IMG/VR virus record: IMGVR_UViG_3300028416_000501
Coordinates: 15,054-79,053 of that record
Length of the DNA: 64,000 bases
From: a virus
Strand: one strand, 5' to 3'
In this document: positions 1,964 to 41,061 of the stretch, in pieces
Numbering within the stretch: the stretch's first letter is position 1
Layout of the letters: each line of letters starts with the position of its first letter
The notes under the pieces: model-generated
Told to the model about the DNA's origin: nothing
The model's input: the letters and a program-made list of their open reading frames with translations, nothing else
Databases searched by the model: none
Position numbers and translations under genes: made by a program

Positions 1964-2260
1964 ATGTGGGAAATAATTGAAAGAATGGCAACAGACCGTC
2001 TATGGGTATACACTGCTCTAGTAGGAAGTATATTCGGTGCGTTGTTTGTAGCATATTTACGTGGAACTAGAATTAGTGCATGGGCTTTCAGCAAATGGTC
2101 AGCATTGCTAAACTTCTTTGTTACACGCTATGGTTGGACATGGTTCCAACAAGATCCAAATGCTTGGAAAAAATTACACCCAGAACTTACTAAACGCATA
2201 GAAGATTTAGAAAAGCGTTTAGCCTGGATAGAAAAAACTACCACACGAAAAGTAAAATAA
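1964..2260 (+). CDS. small membrane protein with C-terminal coiled coil
   Basis: Likely start ATG 1964 after upstream stop; TM segment LWVYTALVGSIFGALFVAYL. Confidence 0.65.
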   Translation: MWEIIERMATDRLWVYTALVGSIFGALFVAYLRGTRISAWAFSKWSALLNFFVTRYGWTWFQQDPNAWKKLHPELTKRIEDLEKRLAWIEKTTTRKVK

Positions 2261-2279
2261 CAACGCTGTAAGTTGTTAT
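2257..2279 (+). terminator. hairpin, possible terminator
   Basis: ATAACAAC-N7-GTTGTTAT inverted repeat at gene end. Confidence 0.35.
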
Positions 2280-2310
2280 ATCTCAACCTATCAAAAACCT
2301 CAAAAAACAA

Positions 2311-2339
2311 TTGACTTTATCATAATTATCGTATATAAT
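2311..2339 (+). promoter_or_regulatory. sigma70-type promoter
   Basis: TTGACT-17bp-TATAAT upstream of AGGAG RBS. Confidence 0.75.
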
Positions 2340-2366
2340 TATAACTAATAAACCAGGAGAACATCT

Positions 2367-2624
2367 ATGAGCATCACATTTAATCAAGCAGATATTGAGA
2401 AACTAAAAACACTAATAAAAGAAGGTATCCAAGTAAGCCAAGAAGTGGAAACACTTAATGAAGGACTAAGAGATACTGTAAAGCATATTGCAGAAGAAAT
2501 GGGTATCAAGCCTGCAATTATTAACAAAGCTATTAAGGTAGCATACAAAGGCGAACTACACAAGCATAGAGATGACTTTGATACACTTGAAACTATACTC
2601 GAAAGTGTTGGGCGTCCTGATTAA
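2367..2624 (+). CDS. T4 DsbA-like / GapR-like dsDNA-binding protein
   Basis: 85 aa coiled coil; ...RDTVKHIAEEMGIKPAIINKAIKVAYK pattern resembles phage DsbA. Confidence 0.6.
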   Translation: MSITFNQADIEKLKTLIKEGIQVSQEVETLNEGLRDTVKHIAEEMGIKPAIINKAIKVAYKGELHKHRDDFDTLETILESVGRPD

Positions 2625-2932
2625 TGGAACAACGCAAAAAACTCAATGACAAAATAAAAGAACTTGACAGTACTAGGGTATTTAAAAAGATAACACCCAA
2701 GGGTGATTTATCCTGGTATGTCAAGTGGGTATCAGTGATACTGATACTAATAGCAACAACGGCTAGAGCTACAGGAACAATACCACAAGTTGACTTATGG
2801 TTTGGATTGTTTGGAACTATGGGTTGGCTATGGGTTGGTATGTTATGGCATGATAGAGCATTGGTATTTCTAAATGGTGTATTAGTTACAATCATAGTAA
2901 TGGGCCTTATGAACTATTATTTTGGGGCATAG
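2624..2932 (+). CDS. small 3-TM membrane protein
   Basis: Three hydrophobic segments; WVGMLWHDRALVFLN motif. Confidence 0.7.
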   Translation: MEQRKKLNDKIKELDSTRVFKKITPKGDLSWYVKWVSVILILIATTARATGTIPQVDLWFGLFGTMGWLWVGMLWHDRALVFLNGVLVTIIVMGLMNYYFGA

Positions 2933-2934
2933 TT

Positions 2935-4056
2935 TTGATTGATAAGATAAATGCAATATGGGGCATAGATAATAATACAAGTAACTTAGATAAGTTTACA
3001 GGTTACGAACATCTATACGATAAGTTTGACACTTATACAAAAGAAGTATATTATGCAAACCCAGAACAAACCATACAAGAAGTGTATGATTTATATCGTA
3101 GTGTAAACCTTGTTCCAATTACATACTTTACAGAGCAAGGAATGATTGATGAACTCAAGCATTTCAAAAGCAGAGGCTATAATCACGTAACAGATAATGT
3201 TCAAGGACTAGGCAATAACGCAGGTTCCTCTATTGGAAGATTTTTGTTTCCTAATATGATGACTGCTGAACCAAAAGGCAGAGGCTCAAACAGTTTACGA
3301 GATAGGTTCTTAGATGAGAAAAAACTTAAAAGAGCAATACGCATTTGTTTTGAATTCAGAGACAGTAACAAACTTGTGTACCCAATGTCGTTGAGAACTG
3401 CATTAGAATTAGTTACTGGAGAGAATGTTACTAACTTTAAAGCCCAACACGCCAGAAGTATTGTAGAACATTTGTGTCCTGTTATGTGGGGCAGAGTATA
3501 TGACTACAGTATGGGTTTTGGTGGCAGACTGTTAGGAGTAAGTGCAAGTAATATGAACTACACTTATATTGGAACAGATCCTAACACAGAAACATTTGCT
3601 TATTTAGAATACTTAAATGAACTATTGGGTGGACCTGGAAAAGACAATGAACTATATTGTAGTACAAGTCAAGATTATCAATGCGAAGATATTGATTTAG
3701 CATTTAGTAGCCCACCTTATTTTAACTTAGAAAAATACAGTGATGAACCTACACAGTGTATGGTAGAGTTTGACAACCTTGATCAATGGTTTGAAGGATA
3801 CGCAGTACCAACAATGCAAAACATATACAATGGATTAAACAGTGATGGTATCTTTGCAACAAACATTGCAGACTATAAAACATATGGACAAAAAGAACCT
3901 ATCTTAGTTGTAGACCGTTGGATCGAAACTGCTGAAAAGATTGGATTCAAACATACTAACACAATTAAAATGTTACTAAGCACACGACCTGGTGTTGGTA
4001 ACGATCGTAAAGAAGGTAGACAAAAGTGGGAAGGAGTATACGTTTTTGGAAAATAA
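2935..4056 (+). CDS. amino-DNA methyltransferase (N4-C/N6-A)-like
   Basis: SAM-binding motif I DYSMGFGG, GTDPN, catalytic motif IV FSSPPYF. Confidence 0.75.
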   Translation: MIDKINAIWGIDNNTSNLDKFTGYEHLYDKFDTYTKEVYYANPEQTIQEVYDLYRSVNLVPITYFTEQGMIDELKHFKSRGYNHVTDNVQGLGNNAGSSIGRFLFPNMMTAEPKGRGSNSLRDRFLDEKKLKRAIRICFEFRDSNKLVYPMSLRTALELVTGENVTNFKAQHARSIVEHLCPVMWGRVYDYSMGFGGRLLGVSASNMNYTYIGTDPNTETFAYLEYLNELLGGPGKDNELYCSTSQDYQCEDIDLAFSSPPYFNLEKYSDEPTQCMVEFDNLDQWFEGYAVPTMQNIYNGLNSDGIFATNIADYKTYGQKEPILVVDRWIETAEKIGFKHTNTIKMLLSTRPGVGNDRKEGRQKWEGVYVFGK

Positions 4057-15023: not shown

Positions 15024-15377
15024 GTGACATATTTAGTTAAAGACGAGTGTATCAAATGTAAACATATGGATTGCGTAGAAGTATGTCCTGTAGATTGTTT
15101 TTACGAAGGTGAAAATTTTCTAGTTATTAATCCAGACGAATGTATTGACTGTGGCGTATGTGAACCAGAATGTCCAGTAGATGCTATTGTACCAGATAGT
15201 GCATTAGAGGGCGAGGAATACAATTTCTGGTATAAGTTTAATGCAGACATGTCTGAGGAGTGGCCTAATATTACGCTCGCTCGGCCAGAAGATGTTCCGC
15301 CTGATGCGGAAGAATGGGCAAAAGTTAAAGATAAACGAGAACATTTATCTTATAAGCCAGGAAAGGGCGATGAATAA
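15024..15377 (+). CDS. fdxA: 7Fe ferredoxin (FdxA type)
   Basis: [21 protein letters not shown] and [12 protein letters not shown]. Confidence 0.93.
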
Positions 15378-28465: not shown

Positions 28466-28680
28466 TTTAGTGTAACTTCTTTAACACCTTGTAGTTTTAA
28501 TAAGAAATACTCCTTCTGGGAGTATTTTTTTTGAATCCAAATTGCATGTCTTGGATCAGCACCATATTTAAATATAGTCATTTCGTAGTAATATCCAACA
28601 ATTAGATTACCACTAGTCATACGTTTTGGCCACCAAGCAAACACTCTGTTAACTGTATCGGGTCTTCGTATTATTCCCAT
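28462..28680 (-). CDS. hypothetical protein
   Basis: Coupled to last rSAM; FAWWPKRM motif. Confidence 0.55.
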   Translation of the reverse strand: MGIIRRPDTVNRVFAWWPKRMTSGNLIVGYYYEMTIFKYGADPRHAIWIQKKYSQKEYFLLKLQGVKEVTLN

Positions 28681-29846
28681 TATTTAAAAGTTTCGTCGCC
28701 TGGAAATAGAGGCATTTTTGTTCCTGCTCTACGCTTAGGAATTTTACTATCAGCACTACTTACACATGCACCTGTTGTACATAATGCAGGACCATCAAAC
28801 AACTTAAATCCTGTTTCAATGTTGCCCAAAGGTTGATCCATACAACTGTAAGAACGCTTAACACTACCATCAGGTTCACGTATAATTATGCTACGGTATC
28901 CGCTACTACATTCCCATCCTTTAAACTTATTAAAGTCAAATGCGTTGAATCGTTCTGCTTGGTCCATGTACCACGGCTCGCCATCTTCATCTCTGAATTC
29001 TACTTGCATGTGCCAAGGAACTTTTGCAGTTTGCTTTCTATATTCATCTTCTTGATCAATTTTAAATGTAGGCTTAGGTCTTGTTACTAATTGTTTTTGT
29101 TTAGCCTTAGCTTCTGTATATCCACGTTGCGGCATTCCATTATGCAATTTAGCTCGCATCTCATCTGTATAACCGTCTACTACTCTACTTGCAGTTGGAT
29201 CACTTTGAGGCTTTAGTGTTACATTGATTCCTTGATTGTGAAAGAACAATGCGTTTTCATAATATTCATCAAATAATTCTGGAACCATAACCATATTAAT
29301 AGTTACCTGCACATCATGTTCTTGACATAGTATAAGTTTGTCTGCAAGATCTTGCATCTTCTCAACTGTGTCAACATGCTCAACATGTAAACTACATGTG
29401 ATACTAGCACGGTGAAAATGGCTTGCATAATCTACATAGGTTTTAAACCATTTCATATTACGACTACAGTTACTTGTCATGTGTACACTTGTATAGTTTG
29501 TGTTATGCACATCATCGCTTAGATGTTTCAGCATATCCAAGTACCCAGGATGAAACGTTGGTTCGCCTCCACTTAAACTAAAATGGAAACTGTTAAATCC
29601 ACGTTCACGTGCTTGACGTTTAATCTCATCAATAGTTTTTAAATTTAGCTCTGTAGGTCTATGGTCTTTTCTACTGCTTCTAGCATAAGGCCAACAGTAA
29701 CTACAGTTGTAGTTACAAAAGCGGCCTAGTAGCCAACTCACAGTGAACATGTCTCTGTACAACATATTGCGTTGTCCTACACGAACTAGTTTATCGTACG
29801 GTGTTTTAGTGAAGTCGTACTCGCTCCATTTTAAATCATTTGTCAT
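28680..29846 (-). CDS. radical SAM protein with C-terminal twitch/SPASM
   Basis: CNYNCSYC, SGGEPT, GWECSSG...SC...CTTGAC. Confidence 0.93.
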   Translation of the reverse strand: MTNDLKWSEYDFTKTPYDKLVRVGQRNMLYRDMFTVSWLLGRFCNYNCSYCWPYARSSRKDHRPTELNLKTIDEIKRQARERGFNSFHFSLSGGEPTFHPGYLDMLKHLSDDVHNTNYTSVHMTSNCSRNMKWFKTYVDYASHFHRASITCSLHVEHVDTVEKMQDLADKLILCQEHDVQVTINMVMVPELFDEYYENALFFHNQGINVTLKPQSDPTASRVVDGYTDEMRAKLHNGMPQRGYTEAKAKQKQLVTRPKPTFKIDQEDEYRKQTAKVPWHMQVEFRDEDGEPWYMDQAERFNAFDFNKFKGWECSSGYRSIIIREPDGSVKRSYSCMDQPLGNIETGFKLFDGPALCTTGACVSSADSKIPKRRAGTKMPLFPGDETFK

Positions 29847-30699
29847 TATTGTAATTCTTCGTTATATAGTTTACCCATGTATTTATACCTTGCTTAGTGC
29901 TGTACATTTTCTCGTCAGGCTTAATGTTTTTAAAATCTTCTAAATTAAAATAAAAGAATGTTGTTTTTGTTTCTAACCATTTCTCAATTAAACCTGCTAA
30001 TATGGAGTGTGTTTCATTTGTAAAATGTGCAGGCCTAACATCGTAAGATGGGAACAGATCTTTATCCCATCCTAATATTGTATTTTCAAATTTAACAAGA
30101 TCAAGCAATGAATGTACTTCTGGTCTTAGTATATTTTCATTTGTATTAGGATCATACCAATGAAATCCTTTTATAATCTTAGCGTCTGGTCTTAGTCTTG
30201 TAACCTTATCCAATATTAGTTTGGCAAATGTATTTTCTCTTTCTGTAAATCCATTATGCACATGAAGTTCATGCCAGTTTGCTATTTTTGAATACATATG
30301 ATGTTTGTACATTGAATTGTCATCTTTGAGTTTTGCATATTTATTAGCCTCATTATTTGCCATTTCTATACTAGTCGAATGAGCATTATCATCATTTGGC
30401 CCACGATTATCTTCTTCCCAATAATCATGCATAAAGGTTAATCTATTGTTTGAATTTGTTAATACAAAGATAACTTGCTCATACTGTTGATGATACTTTT
30501 CAAACTGCATAAAACTGTAATATAAATCAGTTCCACCAAGTCCATACGAATCCGCATCTAGTAGATCTATCCATGTTTTAAAAATACTATTATTAAATAA
30601 ATTAATTTGCCTCTGAGTTTCCATGATTGATTGGTGCGGTACTATGACTTTGCTTTCTGCAAAACTATCTCCAAATACACCTATTTTTTTACTGAACAT
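29836..30699 (-). CDS. SGNH/GDSL hydrolase-like protein
   Basis: IGVFGDSFA, SYGLGG, RPAHF. Confidence 0.65.
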   Translation of the reverse strand: MFSKKIGVFGDSFAESKVIVPHQSIMETQRQINLFNNSIFKTWIDLLDADSYGLGGTDLYYSFMQFEKYHQQYEQVIFVLTNSNNRLTFMHDYWEEDNRGPNDDNAHSTSIEMANNEANKYAKLKDDNSMYKHHMYSKIANWHELHVHNGFTERENTFAKLILDKVTRLRPDAKIIKGFHWYDPNTNENILRPEVHSLLDLVKFENTILGWDKDLFPSYDVRPAHFTNETHSILAGLIEKWLETKTTFFYFNLEDFKNIKPDEKMYSTKQGINTWVNYITKNYNNDK

Positions 30700-32000
30700 T
30701 ATTTTTTCTTATCCATATCTGTTATAGTTTCATTAAATTTAGTAAATGCCTCATATTTTTTATCATGCTTGTTATTATCAATACAAGACTGTAACCAACT
30801 AATTGCACCATTGATATGTGTTTCAAACATAAACCTTCGTTTAGTTTCACGTCTTTCGGGGGTCTTTAAGCTATCAAATACCCGTTTTAAGCCGTCTATT
30901 CCAGTTTGTAGTTGTTCAGGGCTTAGTACATTAGCATGCAAGAAATCAGGCCATTGTACGCGGCTTGTATGCCAATTTACCCCTAATTCATATACAATAG
31001 CTTCAGCTGTAGCACCTAATTCCATAGCATTCATGCCACTTATACAGGTAGTTCCTTTAATAACATCTAAGTTATCAAGCTCTCGTTTAACTAATTCAAT
31101 ATTGCTTTTTAATAAATCCCAATCAGATCCTCTACGAATCATATGATTAAGATCTTTGTGTCCATCAATACTAATAGTTAATTTAATACTTTTAAATTTT
31201 TTCCATAAGTCTATTACATTAGTTTTACCTAGTTTCATAATACTTAAATTTGTACTATATTTTAATGTAACATTTTCTGGATGTTTAACACTTTCCAATA
31301 CACGATAATGTATTGGATCCATTAATGGCTCACCGCCAGCAAATTCTAATTCATCAACATGTTCCATGAGTTCAACTAGGTGCCCAACAAATTTCTCATC
31401 TTTTTCATACAAGTTCATTACTCGAGACGTACGAAGGTTGTTACTATCTACAATCTGATCAATATATTTTTGATCTCCTGCACTATAAAATTTAGAAACA
31501 TTATCCCAATCTGTTACCCACTTTGAACTGTCTTTTGGCCAACACATTCTACATTTAAAATTACATACATTACTAAGTTTTAATTCTAGTAAAGGTATTT
31601 TAAATTCTACTTCTCTGTTAATTAAATAATGCTTTACATTTTCTCTGTAAATTTCTTTATCCATTAAATCAGTAAGTCTGTTTAAACGTAAACTAACGAT
31701 TTCATTATCTTCCATCTTCCAACAATTATTACATTGTGTTGGTTTTTCTCCAACAATAAGAGCATCACGTATTTCGTTCATGTATTCACTATGCCAGTAA
31801 TCTTTTAAATCAAAGTCTGTATTCTTTACATTAGGATTTCCATCTTCGGGTGGTTGTGCTCTACAACAAAGTTTTATCTCACCATGTGGCATTGTACTAA
31901 TATGTGAAAATGGTAATGGACAAAATGTATCCTTTGTTACAGGTAATCCTGCTAATTTAGATTCAGCTCTATCTTTAAATGTATTGTAATTATTCTTCAT
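30699..32000 (-). CDS. N-terminal twitch radical SAM protein
   Basis: FCPLPF..KLCC..CNNC; CNFKCRMC; AGGEP. Confidence 0.93.
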   Translation of the reverse strand: MKNNYNTFKDRAESKLAGLPVTKDTFCPLPFSHISTMPHGEIKLCCRAQPPEDGNPNVKNTDFDLKDYWHSEYMNEIRDALIVGEKPTQCNNCWKMEDNEIVSLRLNRLTDLMDKEIYRENVKHYLINREVEFKIPLLELKLSNVCNFKCRMCWPKDSSKWVTDWDNVSKFYSAGDQKYIDQIVDSNNLRTSRVMNLYEKDEKFVGHLVELMEHVDELEFAGGEPLMDPIHYRVLESVKHPENVTLKYSTNLSIMKLGKTNVIDLWKKFKSIKLTISIDGHKDLNHMIRRGSDWDLLKSNIELVKRELDNLDVIKGTTCISGMNAMELGATAEAIVYELGVNWHTSRVQWPDFLHANVLSPEQLQTGIDGLKRVFDSLKTPERRETKRRFMFETHINGAISWLQSCIDNNKHDKKYEAFTKFNETITDMDKKK

Positions 32001-32322
32001 CTTTGCCTATCCGTAATCTGTGTACGTGTTCTGGTAATGCCTTTGATAATTGTACATCTGCAGAACAAATACATCTGGGCTTATTACATATAATAGTTTC
32101 TTTAGGCATTTCAAATCCATCATAAATATTTCCCAACTTACCGCCTACTTTACATATAGCTCTATATACATCACCTGTATTGCTTATAGTAATATTTTGC
32201 ACGCCTGCCCAACATTCCCAACCACGGAAATCATTCTCATCGCGAGCCATAACACTATTTGCATTATCTTCTTCGCTTGTACCATCCTTGTAGTGTACAA
32301 TAATATTTTTAAAATTGCTCAT
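31990..32322 (-). CDS. stand-alone twitch/SPASM Fe-S domain protein
   Basis: GWECWAG...GDVYRAIC...LGNIY...ICNKPRCICSAD. Confidence 0.85.
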   Translation of the reverse strand: MSNFKNIIVHYKDGTSEEDNANSVMARDENDFRGWECWAGVQNITISNTGDVYRAICKVGGKLGNIYDGFEMPKETIICNKPRCICSADVQLSKALPEHVHRLRIGKDEE

Positions 32323-33544
32323 AAAATTCCTTAAATGTCTGATGGAATTTTTCTTTTCTTATTGAATCTAATTCAAAATTTTGTTGTGTAAAATTATTCC
32401 ATTCTTTTGGATCTGGTCGTCGACTATACATGTACTCCACTGCATTAGCAATCCATTTAGATTTAGTATCTCTATACTTTGTGCTGATAATATTTTTTAT
32501 ATGTTGAGGCATTATGTGTATAGCATGCTGGCCTACATTTACATAATGATTGGGCGGTATGTTAGTGTTTCCTTCTATAAAATCTGCAAATTCTAAATTA
32601 GAAAATTCTTTATAAATTTCTTCTAAATAGAATATATTAAATACGCTTATAGCAGGGTCTAAAGTAGAAAAATATTTCTCAACATTGTTTAATTTTTGAA
32701 ATTTAACTAGATTATTTCTTACTTCTTCCCAATTAGCTAATTTACGCTGGTAGTTAAATCTCTCATCAATATCATCTATACTTAATGCAAAGTTTACTTT
32801 CTTAAAATTATTATATAGGTCAAAGTTTTCTTCAGTAGGAAAGTATGTTCCGTTTGTATTGTATCCTATTGTTATTTTACTTGTATCTATGTTTGGATGA
32901 TCAACTAATGCCTGTATTAGTTGAAAATGCTCGGGAACCATAAAAGGTTCGCCTCCCATAAAATGTAAAAACTCTATCGATTCCATTTCATTAATGTCGT
33001 TCCAAATTTTAGGATCATCTATCCAATTACAAGATTGTGTATATTTAAATGCATTTGAATCTTTAAATTTTACTCCAGGCTGATCTAATTCTGCCGTGTC
33101 TTTTGTCCAACTACTACTACCATGCACACCGCATATTCTACATTTTAAGTTACATCTATTTCCTGGTTTTATTTCTAACCATTTTAATTTCATATCTGGA
33201 TATTTTCCAGTTTGCATAAATTCTTCAGTTGTGCCTCTGCTCCATGCACTCGTTGAGAATTTTGCTCTAATTTCTGGATCTTCCCAACATTGGTGACATG
33301 CAGGGTGCTTTTCGTTACGTTTAAAACTCTCCATAAATTCAAATCTTACTGGATCGTTGTATACTTCTTGTATTGTTTTATTACTAATATTTAAATCAAA
33401 AGGATCTCCCATGCAGCAAGGTCTTATTGATCCATTAGTTTCAACTGCCATATGCATAAATGGCAAAGCACAAAAGTTATTACCTGGTTTCTTCAGCCAT
33501 GTTTTTAAATTATCTGCCACTGTCAAATCCTTTGCTAGTTTCAT
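32309..33544 (-). CDS. N-terminal twitch radical SAM protein
   Basis: FCALPF..RPCC..CHQC; CNLKCRIC; MGGEP. Confidence 0.93.
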   Translation of the reverse strand: MKLAKDLTVADNLKTWLKKPGNNFCALPFMHMAVETNGSIRPCCMGDPFDLNISNKTIQEVYNDPVRFEFMESFKRNEKHPACHQCWEDPEIRAKFSTSAWSRGTTEEFMQTGKYPDMKLKWLEIKPGNRCNLKCRICGVHGSSSWTKDTAELDQPGVKFKDSNAFKYTQSCNWIDDPKIWNDINEMESIEFLHFMGGEPFMVPEHFQLIQALVDHPNIDTSKITIGYNTNGTYFPTEENFDLYNNFKKVNFALSIDDIDERFNYQRKLANWEEVRNNLVKFQKLNNVEKYFSTLDPAISVFNIFYLEEIYKEFSNLEFADFIEGNTNIPPNHYVNVGQHAIHIMPQHIKNIISTKYRDTKSKWIANAVEYMYSRRPDPKEWNNFTQQNFELDSIRKEKFHQTFKEFYEQF

Positions 33545-33866
33545 TATAACCTATACCTGGATGATCTTGATTTTTCTTTAGACATAATCGTAAACATGGT
33601 TCTGGCAAATCTAATGTTTCATGTCCCTTTAGTATTGCGTTGAATACATCTGATTCATATATTTCTGCCATTGTACTAGTTCTTATATTTAACTTTGACA
33701 TATCTAAATTATTTTCTTCAGCCCATGCTTCTAAATATTTCCAGTTGCAACGGGATCCATACAAATTGCAAGGCCTAACATTACCTGAGGATCCTAATTG
33801 AATAGGAAATTTCCCACTGTCATCCTTTCTGCATTTAGGGTCTATTAATGGGTTAATTTTATACAT
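33510..33866 (-). CDS. stand-alone twitch/SPASM Fe-S domain protein
   Basis: PKC...GNVRPC...PCLRLC; likely start 33866 overlapping upstream stop. Confidence 0.75.
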   Translation of the reverse strand: MYKINPLIDPKCRKDDSGKFPIQLGSSGNVRPCNLYGSRCNWKYLEAWAEENNLDMSKLNIRTSTMAEIYESDVFNAILKGHETLDLPEPCLRLCLKKNQDHPGIGYNETSKGFDSGR

Positions 33867-34482
33867 ATGGATTATTCTCCCCTGGTAGCATTCCATAATT
33901 ATCTTCACCACGCAAACTTACTACAGGATTAAATTTATCAAATCCCAAATCCATTGCCATTTTCCTAGCAGTATCAACTTGATGTTCGTTGTATTTAAAA
34001 ATTAAGAATTTCCATTCTAGTTTGGGTCTTCTTTCTTTTGGTATACTAGTCATCCATTTTACTCCAGTCATTATTTGTTTCCATTTTGAATTTATTCTGT
34101 ATATATGATTAGTATCTTCTAGACCATCTATACTAAAAGTAAACATAGAACCTTTCCAATCTTGCTCTGCAGCCGCTTGCCAAAACTTTTCTGGCTTTGC
34201 ACTGCCATTTGTATGGACTTCTAAGTATTTTCCTGCTTTAATAAAATAGTCACAAATTTCTAAAAAATCTGGGTGGTATATTGCATCACCGTAACAACCA
34301 ACTATCATATACTTGCGGAAGGCTGTAGTATCTGCTATCTTAAATAATAACTCTTTATCTAAGTGTCCTGCATCCCATATTTGCTTGCCTTCTGGGTCAT
34401 GCATTCTCGAACAAGCTGGACATTGTAACACACATTTACTAGTTATTTCGATTTCTAATTCATCTTTATGTTGATTAAGCAT
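33859..34482 (-). CDS. radical SAM core domain protein (no SPASM)
   Basis: EITSKCVLQCPAC, HTNGS, FSIDG, FKYNEHQ. Confidence 0.9.
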   Translation of the reverse strand: MLNQHKDELEIEITSKCVLQCPACSRMHDPEGKQIWDAGHLDKELLFKIADTTAFRKYMIVGCYGDAIYHPDFLEICDYFIKAGKYLEVHTNGSAKPEKFWQAAAEQDWKGSMFTFSIDGLEDTNHIYRINSKWKQIMTGVKWMTSIPKERRPKLEWKFLIFKYNEHQVDTARKMAMDLGFDKFNPVVSLRGEDNYGMLPGENNPYV

Positions 34483-35191
34483 TTTCTCTCAGCCAACTTT
34501 CTTCTTCTACACTATAGTATTGTCCTGCAAACTTTTCAGTTTCACTATGTGTGGGATGAATTCCTAACATGCCGTCGGCATATGGTTTATTCCAACCTGT
34601 ACGATCCATGTTAACACGTGGTCGAATTTTTCTTATAGTGTATTCAACACCACATTCTTTTAGTTCGTCTATGATTTCTTTCCACTGTACTAAGTGTCCT
34701 GGCAATGCCATAATATGAACATGCATACCTTTATATTCATCTTTAGCTCTATATTCTTGTATTTCTTTCCACATACCTGTGATGTTATTAATAACTTTCT
34801 CATGATATGCAAATTCAAAGTGATAACTTATAATAACATAATGTAAGTATGGCAATGCTTTTTTATATATCTTAGGCGGTGGACTTCCATTAGTTGTTAC
34901 ACTACATCTGTATACGCCATTTTCTTTGGCATATTTTAACATGTCAATAAACTGTGGATGTACAAACGGCTCTCCGCCTGTAAAACTAATTTTAATCTTT
35001 TTGCCATTTGATGCTTCTACTATTTTATCTATTGTATTTGTATACACTTCCCAACTCATATGTTCGCTAGTTTTATTGTGTAGTTCATTACCACAATAAC
35101 TACAGTTGTAATTGCAACGTTTGCCTAAGTTCCATTCAACTCTAAGCAGTTCGTCTTTTGGTGCGTGATTATCTTCTAAGGCTACTAGCAT
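34475..35191 (-). CDS. radical SAM core domain protein (no SPASM)
   Basis: CNYNCSYC, TGGEPFVHP, TTNGS. Confidence 0.92.
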   Translation of the reverse strand: MLVALEDNHAPKDELLRVEWNLGKRCNYNCSYCGNELHNKTSEHMSWEVYTNTIDKIVEASNGKKIKISFTGGEPFVHPQFIDMLKYAKENGVYRCSVTTNGSPPPKIYKKALPYLHYVIISYHFEFAYHEKVINNITGMWKEIQEYRAKDEYKGMHVHIMALPGHLVQWKEIIDELKECGVEYTIRKIRPRVNMDRTGWNKPYADGMLGIHPTHSETEKFAGQYYSVEEESWLRENA

Positions 35192-36363
35192 TAAAAATAT
35201 TCCTTTAGTTGAGGCACTGCGTTTAATACACTGTCTCCTCGCATTTTATCTAAGTCGTTTGTAAAGTTGATAAATGTTTCCCATAGCTCTGGGTTAAATG
35301 TTCTGGTCTTCATACTCTCTACTAGCTTGTCAAAATCATCAAATAGAGATAAGTTTTTAATTGCTTGATCTCGTAAATCATCTGGTAAGTTCATTGGACT
35401 TAAATATGCTGGTTTATTACAAATAGTGGTGAAACTACTGTTTGCACTTACTTTACTATATTTATCTTCCATTTCGTGAAGGAAAAAATGTAAGTCTGGT
35501 AAGTTAAAAACATTATAATTCTGTAGTGTTACATTAAACATAATCTGTACATTGTCTAATTCGTTATACATTGCTAATGTTTTCTCAAAATCTTCTAATT
35601 GATATTTGCCACCTCTGATGTATCTATATAGCTCTCCTGTGCCTTCTATACTAAAACATATACTAACACGTTTAAACTGTTTTAGCAAGTTTAATATTTT
35701 AGGATTAACTACTGTACCATTTGTTGTATAAAATAATTCTACATCAGTCATATCTTCTTCAATAAGCCATTGTAGGAATTGATTGTGATGTTTTGCCATC
35801 ATGGGCTCACCACCTTTAAAGTCTATGCGTTTTACATCTTTTAGATGCGGTAGCATATTGCGTAAATCTTCTAATCCATATTGTTGTAATGGAACTGGAT
35901 TACTATTTTTCTCATATCGTTTGTCTATTTTAGCAAGTGCTAGTTCTTCTTCAAACCAACTGTTACTTGCCCAACTTCCACACATACGACATTTTAAGTT
36001 ACACACATTTGATAAGTTAATGTCTGCTTGATAGAACTTAGGGTTAGGAACTTTATATGTGTCTGGTGTATTGCCATTTATAAAGTCTGCATCAGATTTC
36101 ATAAACTTCTTATTAAACCATAAGCGTCTACTTTGACCTACCAAATCTTCTCTTTCCCAACAACTATTACAAGCACTAGGTTGTATACCTTTTAAAAAAT
36201 CTTTACGTAATTCTCGCATACGCTCACTGTCAAAGTTTTCCATGATAGTATCATGTTCAGTGTTTGGCCTGCGTCCTTTGTTGCTGAACTGACAACAAGG
36301 TTTTATATCACCATTTGCACTTAGTGTAATTGCATGCCAGGGCATGTAACAAAATTTATTCAT
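35191..36363 (-). CDS. N-terminal twitch radical SAM protein
   Basis: FCYMPW..KPCC..CNSC; CNLKCRMC; KGGEP. Confidence 0.93.
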   Translation of the reverse strand: MNKFCYMPWHAITLSANGDIKPCCQFSNKGRRPNTEHDTIMENFDSERMRELRKDFLKGIQPSACNSCWEREDLVGQSRRLWFNKKFMKSDADFINGNTPDTYKVPNPKFYQADINLSNVCNLKCRMCGSWASNSWFEEELALAKIDKRYEKNSNPVPLQQYGLEDLRNMLPHLKDVKRIDFKGGEPMMAKHHNQFLQWLIEEDMTDVELFYTTNGTVVNPKILNLLKQFKRVSICFSIEGTGELYRYIRGGKYQLEDFEKTLAMYNELDNVQIMFNVTLQNYNVFNLPDLHFFLHEMEDKYSKVSANSSFTTICNKPAYLSPMNLPDDLRDQAIKNLSLFDDFDKLVESMKTRTFNPELWETFINFTNDLDKMRGDSVLNAVPQLKEYF

Positions 36364-36919
36364 TTGGCCAATCCGTTTGTATGGGGTCAATGCTAAGTTC
36401 ATTTACATTTAAATGATATGGCATATTAATTACATATTCAATCATATCAACTGCATCATTAAGTTGCATTACTGCTCTACCTGGATGCTTGTGTGCATTG
36501 TTCTCTAATGTGCCAAATGTAACATAACTTACTTTAGGTCCACCTGCCCAAATGCTTTTTAACCCTAATGCGTTGCTTGTGCTACGCAAAGCCTTCTTTT
36601 CTTGTTGATAATGCCAATCGCTACCTTTCGTAGCTCTGTCTGTTGTACTGCCTAACGACACTATATGCAGTCGTTTAAGGTTCTTTAAGGCGTTCTTATA
36701 GACTACATCTAGTAGCAAAGTTTGATGGTACTGCCATAATGCACTACAGTTAATAAAGACGTCATAATTAAGAGCCTTATTTGCTAACTTGTCTTTGTAC
36801 CCGTTTTGCGTTAAATCATAGTTCCAGTCAGTTCTACTAACAAATTGCGTATCTGGCCAGCGTTCTGCTATAGCACTTGCTACACCAAACTCTGGGTTTC
36901 CTGTACATAAAATCTTCAT
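36356..36919 (-). CDS. short-chain dehydrogenase/reductase
   Basis: ILCTGNPEFGVA Rossmann, FINCSA, SLGS, YQQEK (YxxxK). Confidence 0.8.
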   Translation of the reverse strand: MKILCTGNPEFGVASAIAERWPDTQFVSRTDWNYDLTQNGYKDKLANKALNYDVFINCSALWQYHQTLLLDVVYKNALKNLKRLHIVSLGSTTDRATKGSDWHYQQEKKALRSTSNALGLKSIWAGGPKVSYVTFGTLENNAHKHPGRAVMQLNDAVDMIEYVINMPYHLNVNELSIDPIQTDWPNE

Positions 36920-39286: not shown

Positions 39287-40328
39287 AAAACTCCGGACAA
39301 ACTTTTCTAAAATTTGTACCCATTAATCTATCTTTTATTTCCATATGTTTAAGCAACTCCTTAAATGCATTCTCATCATATTTGTATTGAGAAGTTATAT
39401 TATATCTTTTTCTTAATTTGTCATTTAGACTTGCATAAGTTAAATATGCTGGTCTATATATTTCTACACTTTTACTAAACGATATTTTTAAATCTTTTGC
39501 CCACTGTGCCGCTGATTCATTTTGTGATGCATTAACCGACATAGGCAGATAATTTATATTTAAATGAAACTTATCTGGATAATGATTTTCTATTTGCTTA
39601 AACTTTATTAAATTAGCCTCTACTTCTTTCCAATTAGCTCCTGCTCTAATATATTCAAACTTATCTTCTATTCCATCTATACTTACTAAGAATACAACAT
39701 CCTTAAATGTTAGTAACATTTCTAATAGCTCTGAATCAAGTGGTATAGTACCGTTTGTAATAATGCTTAGTCTAACAGAAGGAGATACTTCATCATCTAC
39801 TAAACGTTTAATAATCTTTCTTACATGTGGAATCATTAAAGGCTCGCCACCTGTAAATTTTAAATACTTTGTATCATATAATGATGATAATATATCTGGT
39901 AAGATATCCTTATGCCAGCCTGTTTTCATCTTTGCTTCGACTTTGACTAACCTATGCCAATCTTCGTCTGGATTTGCATTTACCATTGTATGCCATTTAC
40001 TACTACTTAATGGGTTACACATTACGCAAGTCAAGTTGCATGTATTATGTAATTTTAAATCCCAATACTGTATTCCTTGTGCTTCATTAAACCACTCGTT
40101 TGATTCCTGTCTTAAACTTTTCTTGCCTCTGTCTTCTTCTGCTTTACATTCATAACAGTTAGGTAGCCATTTTGTTAAACTTTCTTCATATAGTTCGTTA
40201 AACTTTTCTCTCCAACCTGGCTCATTATATCGCTGTTCGATATCAGAATTCATATACATACAACAAGGTCTGACTTGTCCGCCAGGTCCTATTGTAACTC
40301 CATTTTTAAACATCAAACATTTTGGCAT
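39273..40328 (-). CDS. N-terminal twitch radical SAM protein
   Basis: KC..RPCC..CYEC; CNLTCVMC; TGGEP. Confidence 0.92.
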   Translation of the reverse strand: MPKCLMFKNGVTIGPGGQVRPCCMYMNSDIEQRYNEPGWREKFNELYEESLTKWLPNCYECKAEEDRGKKSLRQESNEWFNEAQGIQYWDLKLHNTCNLTCVMCNPLSSSKWHTMVNANPDEDWHRLVKVEAKMKTGWHKDILPDILSSLYDTKYLKFTGGEPLMIPHVRKIIKRLVDDEVSPSVRLSIITNGTIPLDSELLEMLLTFKDVVFLVSIDGIEDKFEYIRAGANWKEVEANLIKFKQIENHYPDKFHLNINYLPMSVNASQNESAAQWAKDLKISFSKSVEIYRPAYLTYASLNDKLRKRYNITSQYKYDENAFKELLKHMEIKDRLMGTNFRKVCPEFFEDE

Positions 40329-41061
40329 AATTCTCGTTCACTTTATTTTTAAATTGATCACTTGGACCACCATCGAATATCATATGTATTCGAGGCTCAT
40401 CGCTGCGGTTCCATACTGCATGATTGTGTCCTGTATTAATCTTTACTACAAGACCGTTTTCATATGGCAATTTACCATATTCTTCTATTACTAAGTTGCA
40501 GTCTGTTGGATTGTTAATAGCAACATTAGTTGCGCCAAGTCCTGCTAATTTATCTGTATCCTTGTGTGGCATAATCCAACCACCTGGCAATACTGCCATA
40601 AATCTAACACGGGTAAATTTATTATACAGCATTTCGTCTTGCATCCATTGTTTCGTTTTAGGACAAAACTTTGCAATATCTGTCCAATCTGATAACTCAT
40701 CTTCGGCACTATCTGGCAATCCATAATCTTCTGGGCAATTAGTATGTACACTGCTCATACCATGAATACATGCACTTAACCAGCCGCCACTTCCTACTGC
40801 TCTATGAACTGTAAAACATTCTGCTTCTAATAGTGCAATTGCTTCTTTATGTATATCTTGCCACGGTACTGATATGTCTGGAACAGTAACCCACGGAACA
40901 CATGTATTGTCCATTATATTATTAATGTCATTACATGTAAGTTGCACGTTATCTGCAAGAGCAGGGTTTGTGTTAAAATTCTCCCATACTTCAAAGTATT
41001 CCTTTGTTTCGTTGTTAGCTTCTTCCCACCATGCTAAATTATTATAATGTATCATATCCAT
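40306..41061 (-). CDS. aspartyl/asparaginyl beta-hydroxylase-like Fe(II)/2OG dioxygenase
   Basis: RVRFMAVLPGGWIMPHKD (HxD), HAVWNRSDEPRIHMI. Confidence 0.85.
   Translation of the reverse strand: MDMIHYNNLAWWEEANNETKEYFEVWENFNTNPALADNVQLTCNDINNIMDNTCVPWVTVPDISVPWQDIHKEAIALLEAECFTVHRAVGSGGWLSACIHGMSSVHTNCPEDYGLPDSAEDELSDWTDIAKFCPKTKQWMQDEMLYNKFTRVRFMAVLPGGWIMPHKDTDKLAGLGATNVAINNPTDCNLVIEEYGKLPYENGLVVKINTGHNHAVWNRSDEPRIHMIFDGGPSDQFKNKVNENYAKMFDV

Follow-up and report, generated by a model that had tools for sequence, protein, structure and literature searches.

The stretch analysed here (hereafter, the window) comprises 64,000 nt, positions 15,054 to 79,053 of the viral record IMGVR_UViG_3300028416_000501 from IMG/VR (79 kb, approx. 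34% G+C), for which CheckV estimates 23% of a genome; its source is an uncultured giant ocean phage. From position 28680 to the end of the window, almost every gene lies on the minus strand in one string of tight overlaps. Within this string, two enzymes of the radical S-adenosylmethionine (radical SAM, rSAM) superfamily, designated A and B, are each encoded by two separate genes, one for a radical SAM core (AN and BN) and one for a small stand-alone protein of the twitch or SPASM auxiliary iron-sulphur (Fe-S) type (AC and BC). Both genes of B and a complete rSAM gene, X411, lie between the two genes of A (Table 1). The six open reading frames (ORFs) named in the first-pass annotation of this DNA, i.e., the four half-genes and two full-length comparators, are all present at this locus and elsewhere in the string, on the minus strand. 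As was reported there, the A halves are widely separated: 2,153 nt extend from the AN stop to the AC start and hold three intact genes. All five junctions at this locus are overlaps of start and stop codons (1-35 nt).

Table 1. Genes of the split-enzyme locus, their conserved neighbours and the two full-length comparators
Gene	Description	Coordinates	Strand	Basis
A-type paralog	distant full-length A-type paralog, comparator of the first-pass annotation	28680..29846	-	pairwise matches and AC-family HMM
r433	conserved downstream neighbour, rSAM with N-terminal SPASM	30699..32000	-	Pfam matches
AC	auxiliary Fe-S subunit of enzyme A, twitch type, encoded on its own; 110 aa with five invariant Cys	31990..32322	-	similarity to C-termini of fused homologs
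X411	complete 411-aa N-terminal-twitch rSAM gene between BC and AC	32309..33544	-	NF033640, 272.1 bits
BC	small subunit of enzyme B, SPASM/twitch type, encoded on its own; 118 aa if started at the ATG at 33866	33510..33866	-	Pfam SPASM matches of the family, hhalign to P0144
BN	core subunit (radical SAM) of the split B enzyme; 207 aa with CVLQCPAC	33859..34482	-	PF04055
AN	core subunit (radical SAM) of the split A enzyme; 238 aa with CNYNCSYC	34475..35191	-	PF04055
r403	conserved upstream neighbour, N_Twi_rSAM	35191..36402	-	NF033640, 316.3 bits
B-type paralog	distant full-length B-type paralog, comparator of the first-pass annotation	49294..50406	-	BN match; BN-family HMM

AN scores 64.3 bits against the Pfam family PF04055 (gathering cutoff 29.5) and thus belongs to the radical SAM superfamily. 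Together, AN and AC match the two ends of the A-type paralog significantly, as had been noticed from the sequence. In pairwise comparison, AN is 36% identical to the paralog over residues 32-112 (E 8e-16) and AC 34% identical over residues 282-371 (E 4e-13), and the hidden Markov model (HMM) of the AC family matches residues 296-375 (E 7e-13). Both comparators of the first-pass annotation are nevertheless distant paralogs, and far closer fused families exist. In particular, a fused core-plus-twitch A family of approx. 295-325 aa is encoded on more than 585 viral contigs; its N-terminal two thirds are 32-48% identical to AN, and its last 80-90 residues are 41-50% identical to AC. The two A proteins cover the fused representative L059 end to end: AN aligns to residues 1-201 and ends at 201-202, and the conserved part of AC begins at approx. 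203-207. The AC family, which forms 46 clusters of stand-alone proteins at 90% identity, contains the invariant cysteines C37, C57, C79, C84, and C86. A search for longer proteins with AC as the query returned none, which reflects a limit of the word index, as fused relatives exist in viral contigs. AC has no Pfam SPASM match, and its best named match is NF038073 (the STM4011 family), with scores far under the curated cutoff of 200 bits: AC reaches 21.8 bits (profile positions 196-254, E 9.6e-5) and residues 214-289 of fused L059 reach 49.8 bits (positions 177-253, E 2.7e-13), so neither is a member.

The split A proteins carry approx. 25 extra residues around the break (74-107 residues between two flanking motifs, vs 54-60 in fused forms), and the C-terminal tail of AC has 14-37 aa, compared with 3-10 aa in fused forms. 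These extra residues of AN and the AC tail are possible candidates for docking elements. In the window, the regions concerned are the last ~48 aa of AN, where the extra residues precede the C-terminus, and the last ~16 aa of AC; the AC tail is conserved in the split clade, with R104 invariant, and fused homologs lack it. In one relative, a very divergent fused A-type paralog of 308 aa (L009:6342-7268) lies directly upstream of the split AN/AC pair.

BN is likewise a radical SAM superfamily protein (35.4 bits against PF04055), and its family, with approx. 80 clusters of stand-alone relatives of 205-231 aa, keeps C17, C21, and C24 invariant. The cysteine ligands are retained as claimed from the sequence: CX3CX2C is present in both AN and BN, and the AC and BC families have conserved cysteines. 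The first-pass annotation had also stated that BN and BC together reproduce the B-type paralog. This holds for BN, which is 29% identical to it over residues 10-200 (E 2e-22, pairwise; E 9e-39 with the BN-family HMM), but not for BC, whose comparison with the C-terminus of the paralog gave E 1.9 with BLASTP and E 0.013 (probability 3%) by profile, and whose family HMM gave no match at E<0.01. BC is nonetheless to be regarded as a SPASM-type domain, judging from profile comparisons with a closer family. Fused B proteins of approx. 302 aa carry both PF04055 and PF13186 (core plus SPASM) and are 38-42% identical to BN. BN ends at approx. residue 209 of the 302-aa fused protein P0144, the first BC cysteine maps to residue 218, and the BC-family profile aligns over its full length to residues 212-299 (hhalign probability 92.9%, E 3.6e-7). 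BC itself scores 18.1 bits against Pfam SPASM, under the cutoff of 21.5, and 9 of 13 members of its family match (best E 1.8e-5). C12, C33, and C91 are invariant or nearly so in the BC family, and C95 is found in most members. Among 1.8e9 representatives, BC homologs are only small stand-alone proteins. In searches for related loci by single sequence, BC found none and BN only two near relatives, so that profiles were needed.

The places at which the two enzymes are broken were examined on models of the fused homologs L059 (predicted local distance difference test, pLDDT, 93.2; predicted template modelling score, pTM, 0.90) and P0144 (pLDDT 92.0, pTM 0.90), and AC and BC were assigned by alignment to the C-terminal domains of these proteins. 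SPASM and twitch auxiliary Fe-S domains are reportedly defined after Grell, Goldman, and Drennan; in both models, a Cys-rich domain is predicted directly C-terminal to the core. The L059 model best matches BlsE (7vob; Z 18.9, residues 11-299), followed by SkfB, SuiB, MoaA, and anSME. The P0144 model best matches SuiB (Z 18.8, residues 1-297), followed by DesII, SkfB, and anSME; SuiB, SkfB, and anSME cover residues 1-297/302. Core-only rSAM structures (PFL-AE, QueE, NifB) align to the L059 model only as far as residues 203-207 and to the P0144 model only over residues 1-195. The A break falls between helix 191-199 and strand 208-211 of the L059 model, and both breaks come after the helix that follows the last core strand and before the first auxiliary cysteine. 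Because core-only structures stop there and twitch/SPASM enzymes continue, both fissions are placed at the boundary between the core and the auxiliary domain. With five invariant and four conserved cysteines, respectively, AC and BC are compatible with one predicted auxiliary [4Fe-4S] cluster each.

Besides the window, 23 distinct related IMG/VR viral contigs carry a stand-alone AC, and they allow the A split to be placed relative to the nesting. AN and AC are adjacent in 14 of these contigs, usually with an ATGA overlap, and the adjacent pairs take in the most divergent lineages (identity as low as 31% for AN and 42% for AC). In the other nine and the window (10 in all), one to three genes lie between the halves. 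The insert is an X411-type gene alone in L003/L004, L010, and L005/L006, BN and BC alone in L008/L012 and the more distant L095, and BN, BC, and X411 together in the window and L007. In a tree of AN plus AC with fused relatives, the split forms cluster together with 76-93% support in the Shimodaira-Hasegawa-like approximate likelihood ratio test (SH-aLRT). The insert-bearing subclade that includes the window is one tip group (100% SH-aLRT); inserts also occur in L095. Since the deepest lineages have adjacent AN and AC, and the window's insert-bearing subclade is a tip group, the A split predates the nesting, and the gene already consisted of two pieces when its junction received inserts. The picture implied by the first-pass annotation, in which the insert separated the halves of A, is wrong on this point. 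Relatives of both A and B were found in fused and in split state, and each split is conserved in many lineages.

It could be argued that a cassette cut an intact A gene, as homing-endonuclease genes did in Aeh1 nrdA or the T4 topoisomerase gene. Such an origin has a precedent in T4-like phages (PMC2988022), and the three genes in the window sit exactly at the inter-domain linker. However, in 14 contigs, including the deepest branches, A is split in this way and its halves stand side by side, the genes found between them elsewhere are of the radical SAM kind and not endonucleases, and B is also split, without an insert, wherever it is found. An insertion that made the split is thus considered very improbable.

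All genes tested are under purifying selection, which is strongest on the A halves, where it is as strict as on their intact neighbours. Pairwise Nei-Gojobori estimates of dN/dS (the ratio of nonsynonymous to synonymous substitution rates), which are approximate because dS approaches or exceeds 1 in many of the comparisons, are 0.04-0.135 for AN and 0.02-0.10 for AC, compared with 0.06-0.125 for r403 and 0.05-0.18 for r433. Values for BN (0.19-0.30), BC (0.18-0.41), and X411 (0.18-0.38) are higher and likewise well below 1. Moreover, no fewer than 14 DNA runs from marine samples contain almost the whole stretch. One DNA run without a source flag yielded a contig of 2,609 nt that matches 32206-34814 with a single mismatch and so crosses each of the four inner junctions, and the nested order is repeated in the independently assembled relative L007 from another sample. 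That the halves might be decaying pseudogene fragments or products of mis-assembly, for which the unusual layout alone speaks, is therefore scarcely credible: besides the low dN/dS, starts, stops, and Cys ligands are intact in dozens of lineages, and the independent contig and L007 exclude an assembly artefact.

A further possibility is that the halves are rejoined by an intron, by trans-splicing of a split intein, or by a programmed frameshift. Fractured genes with split inteins are on record in marine phages (PMC2677866), and the ATGA overlap of adjacent AN and AC could in principle permit a -1 shift. An Rfam scan of 31500-35700 found no intron and only a chance small RNA match (E 0.6). No intein family occurs among the Pfam matches, and the approx. 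25 extra residues at the A break leave no room for intein halves. A frameshift could not span 2.1 kb with three translated genes. Two metatranscriptome libraries yielded contigs that are colinear with the genomic sequence, and neither these nor the DNA contigs contain joints, i.e., no spliced form was seen. Rejoining of the halves is accordingly given hardly any credence.

The partnership of the halves is indicated by their co-occurrence. In all 33 locus copies with a complete stand-alone AC (23 distinct contigs), a core of the AN type lies upstream of it in the same orientation; the twelve cases that seemed to deviate are ORFs truncated at the end of a locus. A stand-alone BC comes directly after a core of the BN type without exception, also in BN-BC pairs far from any A gene. 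Such pairs, in core-then-SPASM order, are found in unlike neighbourhoods (near the DNA polymerase gene in L164-L168, and also in L170, L182, L190, and L242), and fused single-ORF versions of B are also known (L171-L177, L184, L186); the BN-BC locus L165 and L010 lie on the same contig. BN-BC is thus a portable unit of two genes, present at other places in other phages as well. At L170:5103-5786, a BN-type core is followed by a 227-aa protein whose residues 1-90 form the BC-type SPASM domain and which has an extra C-terminal part. Near the BN-BC pairs, the family-B DNA polymerase is a single 896-aa ORF at L164:533-3223 and two ORFs (516 and 375 aa) at L165:533-2083 and 2096-3223, the latter being either a split polymerase or a sequencing frameshift.

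Because AN with AC and BN with BC always co-occur, the pairs look like fixed, cognate ones. The first-pass annotation had proposed that the auxiliary subunits allow combinatorial pairing; there is no sign of partner swapping, and each small subunit travels with its own core. A related reading is that the halves are decoupled, with AN and BN acting as core-only enzymes and AC and BC as free Fe-S proteins that serve other rSAM enzymes of the array, e.g., r433. If AC and BC were exchangeable auxiliary or electron-transfer subunits, pairing would in effect be combinatorial. There are many paralogous cores in the operon, an r433-type gene follows AC in all but one split-clade locus, and the BC profile is similar to the twitch domain at the N-terminus of NF033640 proteins (probability 74%, E 2.7e-5). 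Yet AN and AC, like BN and BC, strictly occur together in all contexts, r433 and other neighbours have a twitch domain of their own, and the halves tile the fused homologs without loss, with the split-specific extensions sitting at the break. Decoupled halves are therefore regarded as improbable, though less so than a split caused by insertion.

Another part of the earlier proposal, that the twitch domains work as separate subunits in trans, agrees with the conserved splits, the purifying selection, and the lack of anything to rejoin the halves. The halves would thus assemble in trans, a reading well supported by the evolutionary evidence. It is considered likely that AN with AC and BN with BC each form a two-subunit enzyme of the twitch/SPASM type that arose by an old fission at the core/auxiliary boundary, and that the nesting came about by later insertion. 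In both A and B, the gene would have been divided exactly where the core that cleaves SAM meets the auxiliary [4Fe-4S] domain. The polypeptides of each pair would be made from one polycistronic message by coupled translation and would dock non-covalently, the small subunit bringing a complete set of cysteines for its own cluster, so that the usual two-cluster enzyme is rebuilt. Once A was split, the junction between AN and AC would have been an ordinary gene boundary in a highly plastic rSAM operon, and in the window's lineage it presumably took in an rSAM gene with an N-terminal twitch as well as the mobile pair BN-BC. The nesting would then be a by-product of insertion into an already split gene, and neither the cause of the split nor a functional device.

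Several observations weigh against this explanation or blur it. Support for the monophyly of the split clade is moderate (the SH-aLRT range given above), and the branches of L106/L107 are long, so that A may have undergone fission twice independently. Within the window's subclade, the insertions and losses of B and X may have come in any order. The high dS makes the dN/dS values rough, and the RNA-library contigs may come from contaminating DNA and are no proof of transcription. Finally, AC is as constantly next to r433 as it is linked to AN, and because an r433-type gene nearly always follows AC, synteny alone leaves room for another AC partner.

The order of the domains in the A family is not limited to core-then-twitch. 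The AC-family HMM, run over 4,473 unique ORFs from all collected loci, placed the AC-type domain at the C-terminus of 222 ORFs; in 29, the domain stands alone by length (<170 aa), some of these being truncated at the end of a locus. The domain is N-terminal in two ORFs that are almost identical to each other (L119:11108-12256, L120:11078-12247), and L154:9790-11046 is a third, more divergent protein of this rare, permuted kind. In these proteins, the twitch occupies residues 24-115, the A-type core starts at approx. residue 160, and their end corresponds to the end of AN, so that the domain boundary coincides with the split point. They score at most 32.8 bits against NF033640 (N_Twi_rSAM; cutoff 170) and, being under that cutoff, represent an independent permutation. 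The permuted core is marginally closest to split-clade AN (E 2e-27 vs 6e-26 for the best fused protein). The permuted branch is long, and its position as sister to the split clade is neither supported nor rejected (P 0.54 in the approximately unbiased test, p-AU). The first-pass annotation had suggested that the split state may be an intermediate toward the permuted architecture, a descent that the tree neither favours nor excludes. A full route of fission and re-fusion, from fused core-twitch through split core and twitch to the twitch-core order of L119, L120, and L154 with one boundary throughout, which may also have produced NF033640, is only tentatively suggested and seems doubtful at present.

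The surroundings of the split genes are consistent in some places and plastic in others. Dense in rSAM genes, the minus-strand string holds a majority of N-terminal-twitch proteins of NCBIfam NF033640; both X411 and r403 are members, with scores above the curated cutoff (Table 1). An Asp/Asn beta-hydroxylase-like gene (40306-41061) and several ORFs without a Pfam match are interspersed in the rSAM array (28680-64000, minus strand). In most split-clade loci, r403 precedes AN, the exceptions being L095, with a 293-aa ORF between, and L106, with another rSAM gene between; an r433-type gene comes directly after AC in every split-clade locus but L104. Relatives also have extra genes between r403 and sdr187 (a 187-aa gene, 36356-36919), and between r433 and the full-length A paralog. 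Two tandem N_Twi rSAM genes form one ORF of 840-863 aa in L011:4776-7298, L096:4707-7298, and relatives, and are separate in L105 (4817-6130 and 6123-7298), which is a further case of fusion or fission in the same operon. A scan for promoters and terminators found no excess over shuffled sequences and no terminator-like site on the minus strand inside the region. The phage itself encodes a family-B DNA polymerase that is 44-48% identical to those of the jumbo myoviruses Sinorhizobium phage Phosso, Agrobacterium phage Atu_ph07, and Escherichia phage 121Q, as well as a gp44-type clamp loader. The collection of isolate phages contained no close relatives by DNA or with AC as protein, and AN gave distant radical SAM matches only.

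Genes in pieces have been described in T4-like phages: nrdA of Aeh1 around mobE, the T4 topoisomerase genes 39/60 around mobA, and genes 43A/43B of Aeromonas phages 25 and 44RR (PMC2988022). The products of these split enzyme genes reassemble, and for gene 43 it has been suggested that the insert invaded an already split gene (PMC2988022). As in A and B, an enzyme gene of a large myovirus lies in two ORFs, and extra genes can stand between the halves; for A and B, reassembly is predicted. Unlike those cases, the insert in the window holds paralogous rSAM genes and no homing endonuclease (HNH or GIY-YIG), the A split is ancestral and widespread rather than an oddity of a single phage, and one pair is nested in another. 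The fractured genes with split inteins from marine metagenomes (Dassa et al. 2009, PMC2677866) likewise come from the sea and from phage-like loci, where the two coding pieces of a single protein are separated by other genes; there, intein halves ligate the pieces, whereas the A break has no intein-sized extra sequence.

The models of fused A and B match twitch/SPASM enzymes of known structure, i.e., BlsE (7vob), SkfB (6efn), MoaA (1tv7/2fb2), BtrN (4m7t), anSME (4k36-39), and SuiB (5v1q-t), with Z 16-19 over 245-266 residues, and share with them a Cys-rich C-terminal domain after a partial TIM-barrel core. In those enzymes, the auxiliary domain is covalently attached, whereas in A and B it is a separate protein of 110-118 aa. 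Because identity is only 13-18%, no function can be transferred from these structures. The N_Twi_rSAM proteins of NF033640 show that the order of twitch and core can change; they dominate the operon of the window, and it is their N-terminal domain that the BC profile resembles. A and B are families separate from them, as AN reaches only 42.5 and BN 32.2 bits (over the core region only). A full-text literature search with incomplete coverage found no paper on a naturally split core/twitch rSAM enzyme.

If the two-piece enzyme is true, its SAM cluster and its auxiliary cluster could be loaded, isotope-labelled, and mutated separately. In fused twitch enzymes, separate handling of the clusters takes elaborate chemistry (compare PMC10337720). 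The twitch/SPASM domain would then be an autonomous module that can be supplied in trans, and the phage genes would offer natural two-piece versions of a much-studied enzyme class. Moreover, genes in pieces would no longer be confined to rare accidents caused by endonucleases but would include an architecture that is old, widespread, and under selection. The internal junction of such a split gene would behave like any insertion site, and because it accepts inserts, annotation pipelines that expect adjacency would miss the partnership. With fused, split, and permuted forms in one family, the A proteins may provide a testable case of how domain order changes.

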